In this document: in pieces, positions 15,046 to 22,325 of the stretch
Layout: every line of letters begins with the position of its first letter
Position numbering within the stretch: the stretch's first letter is position 1
Virus record (IMG/VR): IMGVR_UViG_3300045988_008368
Span: 1-24,706 of that record
DNA: 24,706 bases
Direction: 5' to 3' (one strand)
Source: a virus
Notes under the pieces: generated by a model
Told to the model about the DNA's origin: nothing
Database searches by the model: none
Seen by the model: only the letters and a program-made list of their open reading frames with translations
Made by a program: the position numbers and the translations under genes

Positions 15046-17412
15046 TTGACTGCATTGGTAAAGGATGATGGTGTTGATATTACATCTAAGTATTCAATTA
15101 TTTGGTACAAAGACGATGTGCAAATATCAACAAATCAAACTATCACAATTAGTGCATCAGACCTATCAGAAAAGGCTGTATATCGATTTAAAGCAATGAG
15201 TGGTGAAATACTTAAAGCAAGTGCAGAAGTCACTGTAATGCGATTGCAAGATGGTCAGAATGGAACAAGTGCATATGTACATATTGCCTATGCCAACAGT
15301 TCAGATGGTCGTGTTGATTTCAGTTTGACAGATTCAAATCGTAAATTTATTGGTCAGTATTCTGATAGTAAGCAATATGGTTCAGAAGACCCAACTAAAT
15401 ACCGATGGAGTGCAATTAAGGGCGAAGATGGTCAGTCATTTGTGAGTGCCGAAGAGCAGTTCTATTATTCGACTTCTCAAACCGAATTAATTGGTGGTGA
15501 GTGGTTTGTTGGTAATGTGGTTTATCAAAGTGATAAATTTCTTTGGAAAAGATGGAAATGTACGTATGCTAATCCTAGTGAAATCAAGTATACGAAAGCT
15601 ATTTTTGACAACACTTGGAATGAAATTGATGCGAAAATCAGTGAGATTCACACTCAAGTGTCTCAAGCAAATGTGCAATCAAAAGAAGCAGTTGAAAAAG
15701 CAACACAAGCTCAGACAGATGCAAGTAAAGCAAATGAATTGGCAAATACCGCTAACACTCAATCAAGCGAGGCTAAGCAACTAGCACAAGATGCGAATAC
15801 TAGCACTGGTAAAGCACAAGAACAGATTGATGCGATTAAAGGAGATATCACTGATTCAAAGCAACAGATTCAAGATGCAGTTGATAAGGCAAACACAAAC
15901 GCAAATGAAATCGGTACAATAAAAGAAACGTACGCTACAAAAGTTGATTTAACTACTGAATCAAAAACAATTCATGCAGATGTTACAACAGAAATTGAAA
16001 AGAAAGTCGGTGAATTATCGACTACTGTATCAGAAACTTATGCTTCTAAGAGTGATTTAACAAGCATTGAAGGTAGTTTAAATACCAAGATTAAACAAAA
16101 TGCCGATTCAATCACAACTCAAGCAAGTTCAATTGAAAAGTTGCAATCAGATACAACTAAAGCTCAGAAAGATATTATTGATGCAACAAAGAAAGCAACG
16201 GATGCTCAAGCTCAAGCGGATAAAGCGTTAGGTAATGCTCAAAGTGCTCAAACTCTAGCAGATGAAGCAAAGAAAAAAGCAGATAGTGCTCAAACTAACT
16301 TAGACAATGCTAATAAAGAATTGGCAGATGCAAAAGCTAATCTAGAATCAGTGACTGGTAGAGTTGATGCGACTGAGAGTGAAATTACAAAAGCTCAAAC
16401 ACGTTTAACAAACGCAGAATCTGCAGTACAGAAAGCTCAGTCTGATGCAACTAAGGCTCAAGGCAACGCAACTACGGCAATCAATAATGCAAAGGCAGCT
16501 CAAGGAGCGGCGGATGATGCAAAGCAGAAAGCAGAACAAGCTCAGAAAGATTTAGCAGATTTAACGAATAAAGTAACTTCAAATACAACGGCAATTGAGC
16601 AGAATGCAAAAGCTATTAAATTACAAGCTACTTCGGTAACTGAAATAAAAGGGGTTGCCAATACTGCAAACAGTAATGCATCAAGCGCATTGAATAAAGC
16701 TAATAGCTTAACTGATAGAGCCGATAAAGGTGAGTTTGATGGACGAGGTGTTGCAAGTACAACTGTTGAATATCAAGCATCTACATCTGGAACTATTGTG
16801 CCTACTGGAACGTGGTCTGCTACGATTCCTACTGTTGCTCAAGGTTCATATTTATGGACTAAGACTACAACTAACTATACAAGCGGAAATCCTACAATTG
16901 GATATTCTGTAGCTCGTATGGGTGTAAACGGTGCTAAGGGTGACAAAGGCGAAATCGGACAAACAGGACCTCAAGGGCCACAAGGAGTTAAGGGCGAGAC
17001 AGGTTCACAGGGTCCTCAAGGACTAAAAGGAGATACTGGTCCTAAAGGTGCTGATGGTAAATCACCAACTGTGTCTGTTAGCAAAAGTGGAAACACTACA
17101 ACTATTACTGTAAATAACCCTGATGGTACAAAAACAAGTCAAACTGTAAAAGATGGAACTAATGGAACTCCTGGTAAAGATGGAGCTACAGGAAAAACTA
17201 CATATTTTCATGTAAAGTATTCAAATGATGGTGGTAAAACATTTACTTCTAATTCAGGAGAGACTGTAGGGGATTATATTGGTACTTATACAGATTTTGT
17301 TGAGGCCGACTCTAATTCTGTTTCAAGTTATACATGGGCCAAAATAAAAGGAGCTCAAGGAGATAGAGGAGCCACTGGTGCCACAGGAGAACGTGGACCG
17401 CAAGGACCTTAG
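15046..17412 (+). CDS. Tail fibre body (continuation of Tal): coiled-coil rod, collagen-like repeats; terminated by an in-frame TAG
   Basis: 788 aa from a TTG with no RBS, and the frame is open back to 14974. It contains a long Ala/Gln/Lys/Thr-rich coiled coil (about 15650..16720), two of the three copies of a fibre module (YY.S.S.T...G.W......KYLW.R; the third copy is in 17416..18159), and Gly-X-Y repeats. The stop TAG 17410..17412 occupies a Y position in a Gly-X-Y repeat. Confidence 0.8.
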   Translation: MTALVKDDGVDITSKYSIIWYKDDVQISTNQTITISASDLSEKAVYRFKAMSGEILKASAEVTVMRLQDGQNGTSAYVHIAYANSSDGRVDFSLTDSNRKFIGQYSDSKQYGSEDPTKYRWSAIKGEDGQSFVSAEEQFYYSTSQTELIGGEWFVGNVVYQSDKFLWKRWKCTYANPSEIKYTKAIFDNTWNEIDAKISEIHTQVSQANVQSKEAVEKATQAQTDASKANELANTANTQSSEAKQLAQDANTSTGKAQEQIDAIKGDITDSKQQIQDAVDKANTNANEIGTIKETYATKVDLTTESKTIHADVTTEIEKKVGELSTTVSETYASKSDLTSIEGSLNTKIKQNADSITTQASSIEKLQSDTTKAQKDIIDATKKATDAQAQADKALGNAQSAQTLADEAKKKADSAQTNLDNANKELADAKANLESVTGRVDATESEITKAQTRLTNAESAVQKAQSDATKAQGNATTAINNAKAAQGAADDAKQKAEQAQKDLADLTNKVTSNTTAIEQNAKAIKLQATSVTEIKGVANTANSNASSALNKANSLTDRADKGEFDGRGVASTTVEYQASTSGTIVPTGTWSATIPTVAQGSYLWTKTTTNYTSGNPTIGYSVARMGVNGAKGDKGEIGQTGPQGPQGVKGETGSQGPQGLKGDTGPKGADGKSPTVSVSKSGNTTTITVNNPDGTKTSQTVKDGTNGTPGKDGATGKTTYFHVKYSNDGGKTFTSNSGETVGDYIGTYTDFVEADSNSVSSYTWAKIKGAQGDRGATGATGERGPQGP
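16921..17064 (+). repeat. Collagen-like Gly-X-Y repeat 1 (16 triplets)
   Basis: GVN GAK GDK GEI GQT GPQ GPQ GVK GET GSQ GPQ GLK GDT GPK GAD GKS, read directly from the sequence. Confidence 0.9.
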
Positions 17413-17475
17413 GGATTGAAAGGTGATAAAGGAGCAACAGGGGCTCAAGGCCCTACTGGTGCGACTGGTACTGGT
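17350..17475 (+). repeat. Collagen-like Gly-X-Y repeat 2 (14 triplets) containing an in-frame TAG
   Basis: GAQ GDR GAT GAT GER GPQ GP* GLK GDK GAT GAQ GPT GAT GTG. The Gly-X-Y register is preserved across TAG 17410..17412. Confidence 0.9.
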
Positions 17476-18159
17476 GTAGCTAGTATGACACAACAGTATT
17501 ACATGAGCGACTCGAAAACTACTCAAACCGGTGGCTCATGGGTTGAATCAATGCCTACGTGGTCAAATGGTAAATATTTATGGACTAGGTATAAAGTGGT
17601 TTATAAGAATCCTGCTTCAACAGTTTATACCACTCCTGTATGTAATAGTTCATGGGAAGCAGTCAATGAAGAACGTACAGAACGACAATCTGCCATTGAG
17701 ACAAAAGCGAATGAAATTACTGCGAAAGTTAGCGAAATTTACGTATCAAATTCGGCTTTGAATCATTATAAAGAAGAAGTATCTACTCAGTTTAGCCAAA
17801 CTAAGAGCGATTTTACGTGGTCAATTAATCGAAGCGTGACCGATGCTAAAAATGAAATGAATGGTCAAATCAGCAGTGTGAATGGTAGATTGGATGGTTT
17901 AAAACAAACCACAGACAACGTAAACAGTTATATGTCTTTTGATAACGATGCATTGACTTTAGGTAAATCAGACAGTGCATTTAAAACTAAAATCACAAAC
18001 CAAGAATGGTCGATTCAAAAGAATGGTGCAAAGGTAACATATATAAACGACCAAACAATGTACATTACAGATGGTCAATTTACGCAGTCTTTAAAAGTAG
18101 GTGCATTTGGTTTTGTACCAAGAGCTAATGGCTCATTGGACTTCAAGAAAGTAGGGTGA
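17416..18159 (+). CDS. C-terminal part of the split tail fibre (downstream of the in-frame TAG)
   Basis: The track start is a TTG one codon after the TAG, with no RBS. The sequence continues the collagen repeat and then a third copy of the fibre module (YYMSDSKTTQTGGSWVESMPTWSNGKYLWTRYKVVY). It ends GAFGFVPRANGSLDFKKVG, typical of fibre C-termini of this class. Confidence 0.75.
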   Translation: MKGDKGATGAQGPTGATGTGVASMTQQYYMSDSKTTQTGGSWVESMPTWSNGKYLWTRYKVVYKNPASTVYTTPVCNSSWEAVNEERTERQSAIETKANEITAKVSEIYVSNSALNHYKEEVSTQFSQTKSDFTWSINRSVTDAKNEMNGQISSVNGRLDGLKQTTDNVNSYMSFDNDALTLGKSDSAFKTKITNQEWSIQKNGAKVTYINDQTMYITDGQFTQSLKVGAFGFVPRANGSLDFKKVG

Positions 18160-18163
18160 TTAA

Positions 18164-20053
18164 ATGGCAGAATTTAGTGGTGGAATACAAATTGGTAGTG
18201 GTCAGTGGGATAAATACTCGTTAATATTACGAATCAATGAAATATCTTATTCTGTTGAAAACAACACATCATATGTAGAGTGGTGGGTTGGTATTCGATC
18301 TAATACGCAGTACCATACACACAATGGAATTCCAGAAACATTTAAAGTATCCGTGAATGGTACTCAAGTGTTAAACCAAAGCTTTACACCTAATGTGCCG
18401 GTAAATACGCTTGTTGGTGTAAAAAGTGGAACTGTAACTATTTCACATGATGCAGATGGTTCAAAAACAATTTCGGCAAGTGCATCTTTCAGCGGAAGTA
18501 ACTCTGGATATTATGCACCTATTACTGGTTCTTGCAGTGGTACTGTTAAATTGACAACTATTCCAAGAGCTTCAAGTATATCTATTGATAGCCCTAGCAT
18601 TGAATGTGGTAAAACTATAAATATTAATGGCTCGAGTGCTTCAAAAAACTTTACACATAAAATCTACGCAACATGGAATGGTAAAACAAGTGAATTAACA
18701 ACGATAAGTGGGACATTAACACCCACTTTTTCTTATACGATTCCTACCGCATGGGAAAAGGACTTACCTAATTCGATAAGCGGAATTGCTACATTTACAT
18801 TAGAAACATTCAGTGGTTCAACTTCGGTTGGCTCAAAATCAGTAAATGCAACAATTAAAGTAAGAAGTGGAGTCGTTCCTAGTGTTGGAACGGTCTCGAT
18901 ATCTGATACAAATTCAATCTGCGTAGGAATAGGTCAACATGTTCAAAGTCAATCAAGATTAAAGTTCTCAATTGCTACAAGTGGTAGTCAAGGCTCAACT
19001 GTTACATCTGTATCAACTAAATTTGAAGGACAAACATATAATGATAGTTCATTTACTACAGGTACTGTACAGGGAAGTGGCAAGTTGTCGTACACAATCA
19101 CAGTTACAGATTCACGTGGTCGAACTTCATCTAAGAGTGGTTCGGTCACTGTATCTGCATACAGTCCCCCAAGCTTAACGAATGTAACTGCAAAACGTGC
19201 TAACTCAAGTTATGCGATTGATGAGGCAAGTGGTACATATGCTTTATTACACTTCAAAGTTGGATTTACTAGTTTAAGCAATAAGAATGTAACATCATTC
19301 TATATTCAATATCGAGCAAGTGGTGCTAGTTCATGGACGAAAATAAATTCGTGGGATAACAACTACACGCTTGAACAAGATTACAAAGCAGGTAATTTAT
19401 TCACATCTGCAACAAGTTCCTATGAGGTTGCGTTCGGCGTTAAGGATAAGTTCATGAGTGATTATTCATGGCAAATATTTACTGTAGCTCCTGCTTACTC
19501 ATTGATAAACTTTGGTAAAGATGGAAGATCATTGACGCTCTTTGGTCAAGACGCTAATCAAAAAGATACATTAACTGTACTAGGTGATATTGTAGCTCCT
19601 ATTTTCTTAAATAAGATATTCCCAGTTGGCGCAGTCTATATCACATACGATAAAAAGAACCCTGGAACATTCCTAGGCGGGACATGGGAACAGTTTGGAC
19701 AAGGTAGAACATTAGTCGGTGAAGGCACTGGAAATGATGGTAGTACAAGTATGTCTTTTACTACTGATTCGAGCGGTGGTGAATATAAGCACAAACTGCT
19801 AGAAACTGAAATGCCGAAACATCATCATAGTGTGAGATTGATGGTTAAAGGATATGCTGGTTGGGAGGAACGAACTATTGACAGTTTTGGAGTAATGATT
19901 GATAGAAGCACAAAAAACTATGTCACTCCAAATGAAAAGGTTAATGCCACAGATGCTTCTGCGTTTGTTTATACTGGTTGGGCAGGAGATAATGTGCATC
20001 ATAATAACGTTCAACCCTACATAACCACGTTCTTTTGGCGAAGAACGCAATGA
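18164..20053 (+). CDS. Receptor-binding tail fibre / baseplate protein: DUF859-like N-terminal region plus C-terminal phage tail-collar domain (currently expressed tip = cassette 0)
   Basis: 629 aa. The N-terminus MAEFSGGIQIGSGQWDKYSLILRINEISYSVENNTSYVEWWV resembles the siphovirus DUF859-type structural proteins. The C-terminus IFPVGAVYITYDKKNPGTFLGGTWEQFGQGRTLVGEG ... GGEYKHKLLETEMPKHHH ... HHNNVQPYITTFFWRR matches the phage tail collar domain pattern (PF07484-like). Confidence 0.8.
   Translation: MAEFSGGIQIGSGQWDKYSLILRINEISYSVENNTSYVEWWVGIRSNTQYHTHNGIPETFKVSVNGTQVLNQSFTPNVPVNTLVGVKSGTVTISHDADGSKTISASASFSGSNSGYYAPITGSCSGTVKLTTIPRASSISIDSPSIECGKTININGSSASKNFTHKIYATWNGKTSELTTISGTLTPTFSYTIPTAWEKDLPNSISGIATFTLETFSGSTSVGSKSVNATIKVRSGVVPSVGTVSISDTNSICVGIGQHVQSQSRLKFSIATSGSQGSTVTSVSTKFEGQTYNDSSFTTGTVQGSGKLSYTITVTDSRGRTSSKSGSVTVSAYSPPSLTNVTAKRANSSYAIDEASGTYALLHFKVGFTSLSNKNVTSFYIQYRASGASSWTKINSWDNNYTLEQDYKAGNLFTSATSSYEVAFGVKDKFMSDYSWQIFTVAPAYSLINFGKDGRSLTLFGQDANQKDTLTVLGDIVAPIFLNKIFPVGAVYITYDKKNPGTFLGGTWEQFGQGRTLVGEGTGNDGSTSMSFTTDSSGGEYKHKLLETEMPKHHHSVRLMVKGYAGWEERTIDSFGVMIDRSTKNYVTPNEKVNATDASAFVYTGWAGDNVHHNNVQPYITTFFWRRTQ
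19749..19785 (+). repeat. Crossover site S0 (core GTATGTCTTTTAC 19749..19761) inside the expressed fibre gene
   Basis: GTATGTCTTTTACTACTGATTCGAGCGGTGGTGAATA. The reverse complement is found exactly at 20842..20878. The ATG of the core is codon 530 (Met) of the fibre. Confidence 0.85.
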
Positions 20054-20302
20054 TTATTTAATTCGTTTCCAAAAGTAAGTTACAATGGATGGCTGTAAAT
20101 TATTATGTGCTTGGTTTCCTCCTGTGTTTGTTGTATTACTCATATAGCCACCATTAAACCATGAGTTATTTGATGCGGATTGAATATTTCCTTTTCCGTC
20201 AATCCAAGCGCAGTCATTAAATTTATGCGCATGATTAGGCATTTCTTGTATTGTTAGTTGGTGCTTGTATTCTCCGTATGTTTTTCCGGATGTAAATGAC
20301 AT
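20054..20302 (-). CDS. Silent alternative fibre-tip cassette A (82 aa, collar-domain C-terminal half)
   Basis: MSFTSGKTYGEYKHQLTIQEMPNHAH ... GGNQAHNNLQPSIVTYFWKRIK is paralogous to the last 100 aa of the fibre. There is no Shine-Dalgarno sequence upstream. Its stop codon abuts the fibre stop codon. Confidence 0.75.
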   Translation of the reverse strand: MSFTSGKTYGEYKHQLTIQEMPNHAHKFNDCAWIDGKGNIQSASNNSWFNGGYMSNTTNTGGNQAHNNLQPSIVTYFWKRIK

Positions 20303-20304
20303 AC
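20292..20304 (-). repeat. Crossover site SA (core GTATGTCATTTAC on minus strand) at the start of cassette A
   Basis: The forward strand reads GTAAATGACATAC. The ATG of cassette A is 20302..20300. Confidence 0.75.
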
Positions 20305-20322
20305 TTTTAATCGGTTATATAG

Positions 20323-20335
20323 GTATGTCATTTAC
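20323..20335 (+). repeat. Crossover site SB (core GTATGTCATTTAC) at the start of cassette B
   Basis: It is head-to-head with SA, separated by 18 nt (20305..20322). The ATG of cassette B is at 20325. Confidence 0.75.
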
Positions 20336-20597
20336 AACCAATTCTGAAGGTGGTGAATACTATCATACGTTATCATATTCTGAAATGCCTGCTCACGCAC
20401 ACGAAGTTGGTATATGGGGTACGTCTGGCGTTTTAACAACTACTCCGTGGGAATTTATGGCCATTAATGGTTCGCATCATTCTGATGGTCAAAGTCACAA
20501 TGTAAATAGTATTCATACAAATGGATCTGGTGGCAATATTCCACACAATAACGTGCAACCATATTTAGTTGTTTTCTTTTGGCGAATGGTAAAATAG
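20325..20597 (+). CDS. Silent alternative fibre-tip cassette B (90 aa)
   Basis: MSFTTNSEGGEYYHTLSYSEMPAHAH ... GGNIPHNNVQPYLVVFFWRMVK. The track ORF (20265..) adds 20 spurious residues by reading antisense through the start of cassette A. There is no RBS. Confidence 0.75.
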   Translation: MSFTTNSEGGEYYHTLSYSEMPAHAHEVGIWGTSGVLTTTPWEFMAINGSHHSDGQSHNVNSIHTNGSGGNIPHNNVQPYLVVFFWRMVK

Positions 20598-20876
20598 CTA
20601 CTTGATACGTCTCCAAAAGTAAGTTACCACGTAAGGTTGTACATTATCGTGTGGTTTGTTTCCGCCTGTTGGCCATGTTTGACCGTACCAATAATAATTA
20701 GTTCTATTAGCACGTTCAGTGGCTCTCGTAAAAGGTACATCACTATATGGATTACCATATAATGCAGTGGTTACATCAGTTTGTTGGTCTAAGATCCAAT
20801 GCGTATGGCTCGGTAGCTCTTCACGTGTAAGTTTATGATAGTATTCACCACCGCTCGAATCAGTAGTAAAAGACAT
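20598..20876 (-). CDS. Silent alternative fibre-tip cassette C (92 aa)
   Basis: MSFTTDSSGGEYYHKLTREELPSHTH ... GGNKPHDNVQPYVVTYFWRRIK. The first 11.7 codons are nucleotide-identical to the expressed tip. Its stop codon abuts the cassette B stop. There is no RBS. Confidence 0.75.
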   Translation of the reverse strand: MSFTTDSSGGEYYHKLTREELPSHTHWILDQQTDVTTALYGNPYSDVPFTRATERANRTNYYWYGQTWPTGGNKPHDNVQPYVVTYFWRRIK

Positions 20877-20878
20877 AC
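20842..20878 (-). repeat. Crossover site SC (core GTATGTCTTTTAC on minus strand, 20866..20878) at the start of cassette C
   Basis: Perfect 37-nt reverse complement of S0. It lies 2 nt from the stop codon of the recombinase gene. Confidence 0.85.
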
Positions 20879-20880
20879 AT

Positions 20881-21774
20881 TTACTTGTAGTAATCGCAAA
20901 GTAATTCTACACATTTTCTTTTTAATTCCATTTGAGGATGAACGTAGATATTCATAGTGATCGAAACATTGGAATGGCCAAGTAATTCACTAAGTGATTT
21001 ATAATCACAACCACATTCAATGCATCTTGTTGCAAATGTGTGTCTTAATGCATGGAATTTGAGGTGTGGAAGTTCAAGGTCTTTAAGTAGTCGATTGTAG
21101 TAAAGCCTGTATTTATTAGGCTCTATCGGTTTATCTCGATTCGTTAATACATAGTTATCTGCATCACCTTGAAGCAATATAGCATAATGCATTATCCAAG
21201 CGTTAAGAGGAATCATACGAGTGCTAGAACGTGATTTAGGCGGTGTTATTGAAAGATGACTACCGTCTTCTTTTGTGTATGTACGTATCATGGTTTTATC
21301 TATTTTTAACAATTTGGTTTGAATGTTTATATCAGACCATTTCAAAGCGCATAGTTCACCTATGCGTATTCCAGTGTGGATGCATAACAGGATTCCAAAG
21401 TTTTTGTAATTAATCTCAGATTGGAGGTGATTAATCAATGAGATTTGATTTTCTTTTTCAAAAATTTCTACCGCCGTAGGAGGATGGTATGGAAGTTGAA
21501 TATCGATTTTAAATGGAAGTGTGAACTTCAGAATTTGAATAATGTCTTTGGCATATTTAAAAGAAATGCCACCTTTTCCATCTTTACGACCATTTTCAAG
21601 TTTTTGAAGAATAAACTCTTGCAGAATATCGTTATTCAATTCTTCAATTTTATATGTGCCAAGTGTTGGCAATACGTGATTATGAATCACATTACAATAA
21701 TTTGTGTAAGTGCTGTATTTTAGATAGATTTTCTTTTCTTTTAACCAAGAATGTAATTTGTCAGAATATAGCAT
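20881..21774 (-). CDS. Tyrosine site-specific recombinase (small XerC/D- or Rci-like); candidate invertase of the fibre-tip segment
   Basis: 297 aa with a GAGGT RBS. The catalytic pattern is present: HTGIRIGELCAL (Arg I), HALRHTFATR (H-x-x-R), LLGHSNVSITMNIYVH (His/Tyr). It is the only long minus-strand gene in an otherwise + strand late region, and it sits 4 nt from cassette C rather than in a lysogeny module. Confidence 0.85.
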   Translation of the reverse strand: MLYSDKLHSWLKEKKIYLKYSTYTNYCNVIHNHVLPTLGTYKIEELNNDILQEFILQKLENGRKDGKGGISFKYAKDIIQILKFTLPFKIDIQLPYHPPTAVEIFEKENQISLINHLQSEINYKNFGILLCIHTGIRIGELCALKWSDINIQTKLLKIDKTMIRTYTKEDGSHLSITPPKSRSSTRMIPLNAWIMHYAILLQGDADNYVLTNRDKPIEPNKYRLYYNRLLKDLELPHLKFHALRHTFATRCIECGCDYKSLSELLGHSNVSITMNIYVHPQMELKRKCVELLCDYYK

Positions 21775-22076: not shown

Positions 22077-22325
22077 ATGGAGTTAAATGAAACAGTAGAG
22101 TTGATGAACTCTGCAGATTACAAAGACAGATTCAAAGGCGAGTATTTTCAAGTAAAGATTCGTCACGACAAATTGAAAGCTATGTGCGAAAAATGGGATG
22201 AAGGAAAGTTGAATTTCAAACCGACTTGTCCAAGAGAAATCTATGATCTTCAATTAGATGCCATGAAAAGATATATGGACATCCTTGTTATTCGTACAAA
22301 GATTGAAAATGTTGAGTTGATCTAG
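22077..22325 (+). CDS. Small conserved helical phage protein (function unknown)
   Basis: RBS AGGAGG. 82 aa. DRFKGEYFQVKIRHDKLKAMCEKWDEGKLNFKPTCPREIYDLQLDAMKRYMDIL resembles a widespread small phage protein family that I cannot name with certainty. Confidence 0.6.
   Translation: MELNETVELMNSADYKDRFKGEYFQVKIRHDKLKAMCEKWDEGKLNFKPTCPREIYDLQLDAMKRYMDILVIRTKIENVELI

Follow-up and report, generated by a model that had tools for sequence, protein, structure and literature searches.

A phage tail-tip domain probably encoded in two halves and switched by recombination at a core within one of its loops

Many phage tip domains are encoded as one uninterrupted stretch, and here we describe a locus at which such a domain is instead divided between a constant gene and a set of exchangeable gene ends. 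It lies in a 24.7-kb viral contig from IMG/VR (record IMGVR_UViG_3300045988_008368, positions 1 to 24,706), which was analysed over its whole length and is called the window below; it belongs to a siphovirus, a gut phage of Erysipelotrichaceae. The gene in question (18164–20053, + strand) is a 629-residue open reading frame (ORF) assigned to PHROG 372, 'tail protein', and the isoform present in the window consists of a constant part joined to the first of four alternative ends, or cassettes. In all likelihood, the last domain of this protein is a tip domain of the T4 gp10/gp12 type (Pfam Gp10_C) that is encoded in two pieces, the second of which would be swapped by a recombinase at a 13-bp core situated in a permissive loop of the domain.

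Pfam resolves the tail protein into DUF859 (residues 17–454) and Gp10_C (residues 482–628). The Gp10_C model (PF21939) aligns to the 629-residue protein in one stretch, covering profile positions 2–139 of 139 with an E value of 2.8e-22; the score is 80.6 bits for the whole protein, against a cut-off of 27, and 85.8 bits for the isolated 160 residues. The constant part of the gene provides the beginning of this domain: residues 482–529 (19607–19750, + strand; profile positions 2 to ~52) hold the PVGAVYITY strand, NPG..GGTW, GQGRTLVG and the loop GTGNDGSTS, and this first part is near-invariant across relatives. The protein then reads ...IFPVGAVYITYDKKNPGTFLGGTWEQFGQGRTLVGEGTGNDGSTS followed by MSFTT..., with the ATG of MSFT at 19751, and every cassette taken alone matches only the remainder of the model, positions 53/55–139. 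Profile comparison with known structures gave the same picture. The family profile aligned in one stretch to T4 gp10 residues 439–602 (2FKK; E 2.7e-15), and also to SU10 gp16, a profile of the cassettes only aligned to gp10 residues 513–602, and the constant first part aligned with residues ~449 to ~512.

In homologues from other phages the domain is contiguous. At least 80% of the 160 residues is covered in one place in 500 phage records, and examples of the contiguous form are KVP40 gp12-2 (annotated as 'tail collar fiber protein'), Streptococcus phage Javan626 and T4 gp10. In Javan626, a gene at the same genome position likewise combines DUF859 with Gp10_C; recombinase and cassettes are absent from its locus. 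The library searched holds 23,022 representative proteins with a Gp10_C-type domain; among the 150 representatives listed, nearly all match in one stretch, 138 of 152 domain hits end at the C-terminus of the protein and 137 of the 152 are without the shufflon loop motif. At the nucleotide level, the locus had no blastn match among 50,697 phage records. When aligned with KVP40 and Javan626, the crossover loop, GTGNDGSTSMSFT, falls on an indel-bearing loop between two conserved elements, the QGRxLVG strand and the TGGEY block, and the crossover therefore occupies a permissive seam within the domain.

These results bear on an earlier note on this DNA, made by a model from the letters alone, which had placed the swap point inside a tail-collar domain and proposed that only the C-terminal part of that domain is exchanged. 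The sequences it quoted, the end it gave for the constant part and the MSFTT start all agree with the ORFs; the exchange is confined to the C-terminal part, and the profile comparison to which it had looked for confirmation gave the single stretch on T4 gp10. Its family name has to be corrected: the classic 'Phage tail collar' model PF07484 found no match even at an E value of 10 in the window domain, KVP40 gp12-2 or Javan626, and the family is therefore called Gp10_C here. The note's view that the site falls within a single fold and not at a domain boundary stands in so far as one domain, by both Pfam and the gp10 alignment, spans it, but the point is not an arbitrary one, the indel-tolerant loop being a natural seam.

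Cassette 1, the expressed one (19751–20053, + strand; 100 residues), covers Gp10_C profile positions ~53–139 and ends in the returning strand HHNNVQPYITTFFWRRTQ. It is followed by three silent cassettes, namely cassette 2 (20054–20302, − strand; 82 residues; profile 55–139, E 9e-10), cassette 3 (20325–20597, + strand; 90 residues; profile 53–137) and cassette 4 (20598–20876, − strand; 92 residues; profile 54–139). They form two segments, each with two convergent cassettes, and the stop codons of neighbouring ORFs abut at 20053/20054 and 20597/20598; the recombinase gene is convergent on the fibre gene. The list of ORFs in the window has none between or after the cassettes, and hence no chaperone gene. 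All four are built of the same parts in the same order, a GGEY/HxH neck, a variable head and the returning strand. More than 100 related loci with 2–8 cassettes each, from hosts within Erysipelotrichaceae (Holdemanella, Floccifex, Firmicutes bacterium M10-2 and Faecalibaculum), yielded 83 cassette clusters at 85% identity. The cassettes are 66–108 residues long, all start at the same position and are conserved at both ends with a hypervariable middle, the returning strand being among the best-conserved parts of every one.

Delimited by the conservation profile of the 83 clusters, the hypervariable insert of cassette 1 measures 56 residues (19829–19996, + strand), and the four inserts of the window span 39–56 residues. 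The earlier note was right that all four cassettes possess such a stretch, but had put it at 30–50 residues. It had also described the exchanged element as a loop; the variable insert is indeed exchanged, but it is a beta-rich stretch (27–69 residues from cassette residue 27 to the QP motif across the clusters; AlphaFold predicted local distance difference test, pLDDT, ~90) that travels together with the HxH neck and the returning strand.

The crossover core, GTATGTCNTTTAC, occurs in exactly four copies in the window: core A (GTATGTCTTTTAC; 19749–19761, + strand), core B (20292–20304, − strand), core C (20323–20335, + strand) and core D (20866–20878, − strand, 2 nt from the recombinase stop codon). 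Core A encodes (S)MSFT in frame, and all four copies are exact. With one mismatch allowed, shuffled sequences contained a mean of 0.19 matches, and four were never reached in 100 shuffles. A comparison of 152 distinct sites from related contigs showed no conservation upstream of the 110 silent cassettes other than that of the core, whereas the expressed copy has the conserved constant gene in front of it. The recombination core thus dictates the invariant MSFT that opens each cassette, and the ATG within it is therefore not a start codon.

This bears directly on whether the small ORFs might be independent genes and not exchangeable gene ends. An ATG opens each cassette, gene callers list genes of 82–100 residues, and entries of 87 and 124 residues named 'baseplate protein' in BFVD match the model, all of which would fit independent genes. 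However, the ATG belongs to the crossover core, no Shine-Dalgarno-like sequence could be read upstream of the silent copies, each cassette covers only profile positions 53–139 of one domain, and natural isoforms exist in which the same cassettes continue the reading frame of the constant part. Free-standing cassette genes were rejected on account of the missing ribosome-binding site and the existence of fused isoforms, and we regard them as barely conceivable.

The presumed invertase is an armless XerC/D-like tyrosine recombinase of 297 residues (20881–21774, − strand) that reads towards the cassettes. It matches Pfam Phage_integrase (PF00589; E 1.6e-28) and carries an N-terminal SAM-like domain, Phage_int_SAM_3; HxxR and the C-terminal ...NIYVH tyrosine motif are readable in its sequence. 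Among the NCBIfam models, only generic Xer-like and tyrosine-invertase models match, all far below their cut-offs, and no Rci-specific family does. More than 50 related contigs have kept the gene next to their cassettes, and in dozens of contigs it is intact and >90% conserved. Its adjacency, family membership and conservation, all read from sequence, suggest that this recombinase acts as the invertase of the locus. By tblastn against the phage collection, nothing exceeded 39% identity to it, and the closest matches were unannotated faecal contigs. A related prophage in a cultured mouse-gut isolate, Firmicutes bacterium M10-2 (KE159692.1, 5896–8423), encodes a 754-residue fibre and a recombinase 61% identical to that of the window, and it has a single silent cassette besides the expressed one, which makes a simple two-state switch. 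Holdemanella biformis and Faecalibaculum rodentium are further cultured hosts with related prophages. Bacteroidales metagenome-assembled genomes (four records) encode recombinases 33–40% identical to that of the window; no Gp10_C-type cassettes were detected beside these genes, and the genomes were dropped for this reason.

Rearranged forms of the locus occur naturally. Contig L117 (ENA ERZ27295422) carries window positions 19742–20885 inverted at 99.5% identity, with cores A and D as the boundaries of the inversion and the cassettes in the order c4+ c3− c2+ c1−, so that cassette 4 is the one fused to the constant part. This contig is colinear with the window up to 19797 (95.6% identity) and from 20830 on (98.9%), and its inverted block differs from the window at 6 of 1144 bases, whereas the flanks differ by 1–4%. 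Two further contigs, L118 and L119 (Logan DRR509115 and DRR509118), represent a deletion derivative of the same phage and are without window positions 19786–20322, which is exactly cassettes 1 and 2, and keep the constant part joined to c3 (+) followed by c4 (−). To judge from these junctions, the two cassettes were removed when cores A and C, which have the same orientation and bound the deletion, recombined with each other, so that deletion between direct sites does occur. In L118 and L119 the recombinase ORF has only 252 residues, and their alignment contains one gap; the lineage is possibly locked or in decay.

Public proteins provide additional isoforms: in P0059–P0061 a constant part at 99% identity is followed by tip 4 at 100% identity, and in P0055 the constant part is fused to tip 3. 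In distant relatives, three more pairs of inversion isomers (L058/L060, L074/L066 and L073/L082) were found, with 20–27-nt overlaps at the cores. The earlier note had proposed that each inversion gives the domain a different second half, and L117, P0055 and P0059–P0061 bear this out. As far as can be read from isomers compared across contigs from different samples, the switch is active. Moreover, 18 of 53 related contigs stop within ~30 codons past the core, which is where an assembler faced with alternative continuations would be expected to stop, and genomes of this kind seem to be cut off systematically at the shufflon in viral catalogues.

Could the arrangement instead be a frozen relic of past rearrangements that no longer switches? 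The shortened recombinase and the deletion in the L118/L119 lineage would fit such a relic, as would the fact that rearranged forms are known across samples and not within one population. Against it, the inverted block of L117 is closer to the window than its flanks are, the four cores are exact, the recombinase is intact and conserved among relatives, and many assemblies break exactly at the site. A dead relic was rejected on the strength of the near-identical inverted block, the exact cores and the intact recombinase, and we consider it highly improbable.

Switching at the core explains two artefacts, phage contigs that break at the site and silent cassettes annotated as 'baseplate proteins'. 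In L117, the silent cassettes are called as independent genes of 82–100 residues. Similar short entries in BFVD (A0A8S5QZZ3, 87 residues; A0A8S5PBR9, 124 residues) bear the name 'Baseplate protein', a label that was probably given in error to promoterless gene ends.

The two sides of the seam vary together. The last strand of a cassette corresponds to the lineage from which the constant half comes, and this is so even within the tip family EASGYGL, which is found in four lineages: a constant first strand VYITY is accompanied by the cassette last strand QPYI[VT]V[YF]FW, VISNT by PP[YH]KxVYYW, VKLTW by [PQ]PY[AQ]V[VI]Y[CA]W, and VEATV by QP[WY]IGVYLW. In 133 non-redundant non-shufflon homologues, 14 of the 40 top covarying core pairs link the first part of the domain to the last strand, versus 7.6 expected, in figures uncorrected for phylogeny. 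Profile pair 40–156 ranks second in covariation, with S–M in 61 and T–F in 29 cases versus S–F in 4 and T–M in 7.

Structure prediction, which the earlier note had put forward as a check, was run on the monomer and gave a mixed answer. AlphaFold reached a mean pLDDT of 49 with a 33-sequence alignment and of 73, with a predicted template modelling (pTM) score of 0.41, with a 110-sequence alignment, and it rendered the insert of cassette 1 as beta strands (pLDDT 81–92). Several observations weigh against a single domain split by an active switch. The cassette part was modelled confidently (pLDDT 72–92), but the constant half came out as coil (51–61), the monomer did not give a reliable three-dimensional model, and Foldseek with this model found no PDB match and, in BFVD, only low template modelling scores (~0.25) to Gp10_C, baseplate and tail-collar proteins. 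In addition, the recombinase is assigned its role from adjacency and family membership, the inversion isomers stem from different samples and not from one population, and the covariation, uncorrected for phylogeny as it is, is therefore supportive rather than decisive. An obligate, intertwined trimer computed as a single chain would, on the other hand, be expected to give just such a poor model.

The contrast between a confident cassette part and a poor constant half therefore leaves room for a semi-autonomous head sub-domain. In that case the crossover would sit at a true sub-domain boundary: Gp10_C would comprise a small collar core and an autonomous distal head, a cassette would amount to roughly the whole head with the last strand as a short tail, and nothing would be split. 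The homologous SU10 gp16 has been described with separate central and receptor-binding domains and with HxH pairs, according to a T4 review gp10, gp11 and gp12 have a small core motif in common, to which large loops have been added as insertions, and the crossover lies in an indel-tolerant loop, all of which agree with such a boundary. However, the returning strand is highly conserved, differs between lineages in step with the constant half and, in homologues that have no shufflon, covaries with the first strand; the Pfam and PDB profile alignments cross the seam unbroken, and a discontinuous domain would still need both of its pieces to fold. Taken together, we find a sub-domain boundary unlikely and favour a single Gp10_C domain encoded in two pieces.

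In this divided domain, the constant gene supplies approximately the first 50 residues, that is, the PVGxVYITY strand, NPG..GGTW, the GQGRxLVG strand and the loop GTGNDGSTS with the core. Each cassette supplies the rest, from the conserved neck TGGEYxHxL..EMPxHxH on; the HxH of the neck may bind metal, the hypervariable, beta-rich head of 39–56 residues would make the receptor contact, and the returning strand HNNxQPYIxVxFWRR would pack on the constant first strand. By exchanging strands within the 13-bp core between inverted sites, the recombinase would fuse another half-domain in frame, and the layout of two segments with inverted cores would thus allow any cassette to be fused in frame without a chaperone gene.

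We infer metal binding by the cassette neck because the HxH pairs of the homologous SU10 fibre have been proposed to bind Fe2+. HxH and the later HNN are both present in 45 of the 83 tip clusters, and neither is present in 25. HxH, the E/H of GGEYxH and the E of EMP (cassette residues ~12–26, e.g. window 19784–19828) co-occur and covary with the histidine of the later HNN (cassette residues ~84–86, e.g. window 19997–20005), and the HxH and HNN motifs covary in homologues too. On the evidence of these motifs, the tips seem to form two classes, one putatively metal-binding and one without the metal-binding motif.

A broader and more doubtful possibility is that the core has been fixed in the indel-tolerant loop of a trimeric, metal-binding tip domain with half-domains as the unit of exchange, and that lineages form 'compatibility groups', because every cassette must dock its returning strand on the constant first strand; a foreign tip would then have to re-adapt its last strand. 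If this were true, the locus would embody a natural, chaperone-free design rule for splicing receptor-binding tips.

Elsewhere in the window, tape measure, Dit and Tal genes precede the gene for the 629-residue tail protein. Directly upstream of it, ORFs 15046–17412 and 17416–18159 are split by a stop within 16995–17419. In L118 and L119, 14 nt replace this interval and one continuous gene of 1311 residues is called, and L117 has a continuous gene of 1305 residues in place of the split ORFs, unalignable at window 16995–17419; the split may represent a lesion or a variable collagen-like module. On the other side of the locus, an ORF of 82 residues occupies 22077–22325. For the corresponding ORFs of L117, L118 and L119 there is a precomputed Pfam match to Sequestin (PF21825), and the ORF fits an accessory or anti-defence slot between recombinase and holin.

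The locus can be compared with several known systems. In the R64/IncI shufflon, the tyrosine recombinase Rci is transcribed towards the shufflon and acts with sfx sites on the tips of the PilV adhesin; the segments each have two convergent alternative C-termini, and one arm of the site is conserved. The window shares with R64 a tyrosine recombinase reading towards the cassettes, convergent pairs of C-termini and one conserved site arm, and it has what characterizes an R64-type shufflon, namely a tyrosine recombinase alongside at least two segments with inverted repeats, and in-frame alternative C-termini with rearranged forms. The two differ in that R64 targets a pilus adhesin with four segments and seven tips, whereas the target in the window is a phage tail protein with two segments and four tips. 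Gin of Mu, Cin of P1 and Min of p15B are serine invertases that employ an enhancer and Fis and exchange, along with a large C-terminal region, a separate assembly-chaperone gene (U/U'). These systems, too, alter the C-terminal part of a tail fibre by DNA inversion and so shift the host range, but the window has a tyrosine recombinase, cassettes of 82–100 residues and no chaperone ORF, and the distinction from Mu and P1 drawn in the earlier note was therefore correct and extends to the enzyme.

The tips of the T4 gp10/gp12 type (2FKK; KVP40 gp12-2; SU10 gp16, 7Z47) share with the window domain the first strand, GGTW, QGRxLVG, the HxH neck, a variable middle and the last strand QPYIxVxxW; unlike in the window, their domain is contiguous and has no recombination site, and the loop varies in length.

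The closest parallel in design is the Rin shufflon of Bifidobacterium breve and B. longum prophages, reported as the first phage tyrosine-family invertase acting on receptor-binding-protein cassettes (Mavrich et al. 2018, PMC6109161) and also reported in Eggerthella prophages (PMC8778435). As in the window, a phage-encoded armless tyrosine recombinase adjoins promoterless cassettes for the C-terminus of a receptor-binding tail protein, a short asymmetric crossover repeat precedes each cassette, and inversion isomers occur between genomes (PMC6109161). However, the Rin site rix, an 11-bp TTCCCTAACCC (PMC6109161), differs from the window core, the Rin cassettes weakly resemble the C-terminus of the TP901-1 receptor-binding protein (PMC6109161) while those of the window match only Gp10_C 53–139, and the Rin hosts are Actinobacteria while those of the window family are Erysipelotrichaceae. 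A fusion of PilV and tail collar that is targeted by inversions has likewise been reported. Tyrosine-recombinase shufflons of fibre tips have thus been known since Rin (2018), and the switch itself is therefore not new. What is new is the placement of the seam in a loop inside a very common tip domain, together with evidence of co-adapted halves, which offers a concrete, testable splice point, and the need for a matching returning strand, for engineering receptor-binding tips of the Gp10_C/gp12 type.

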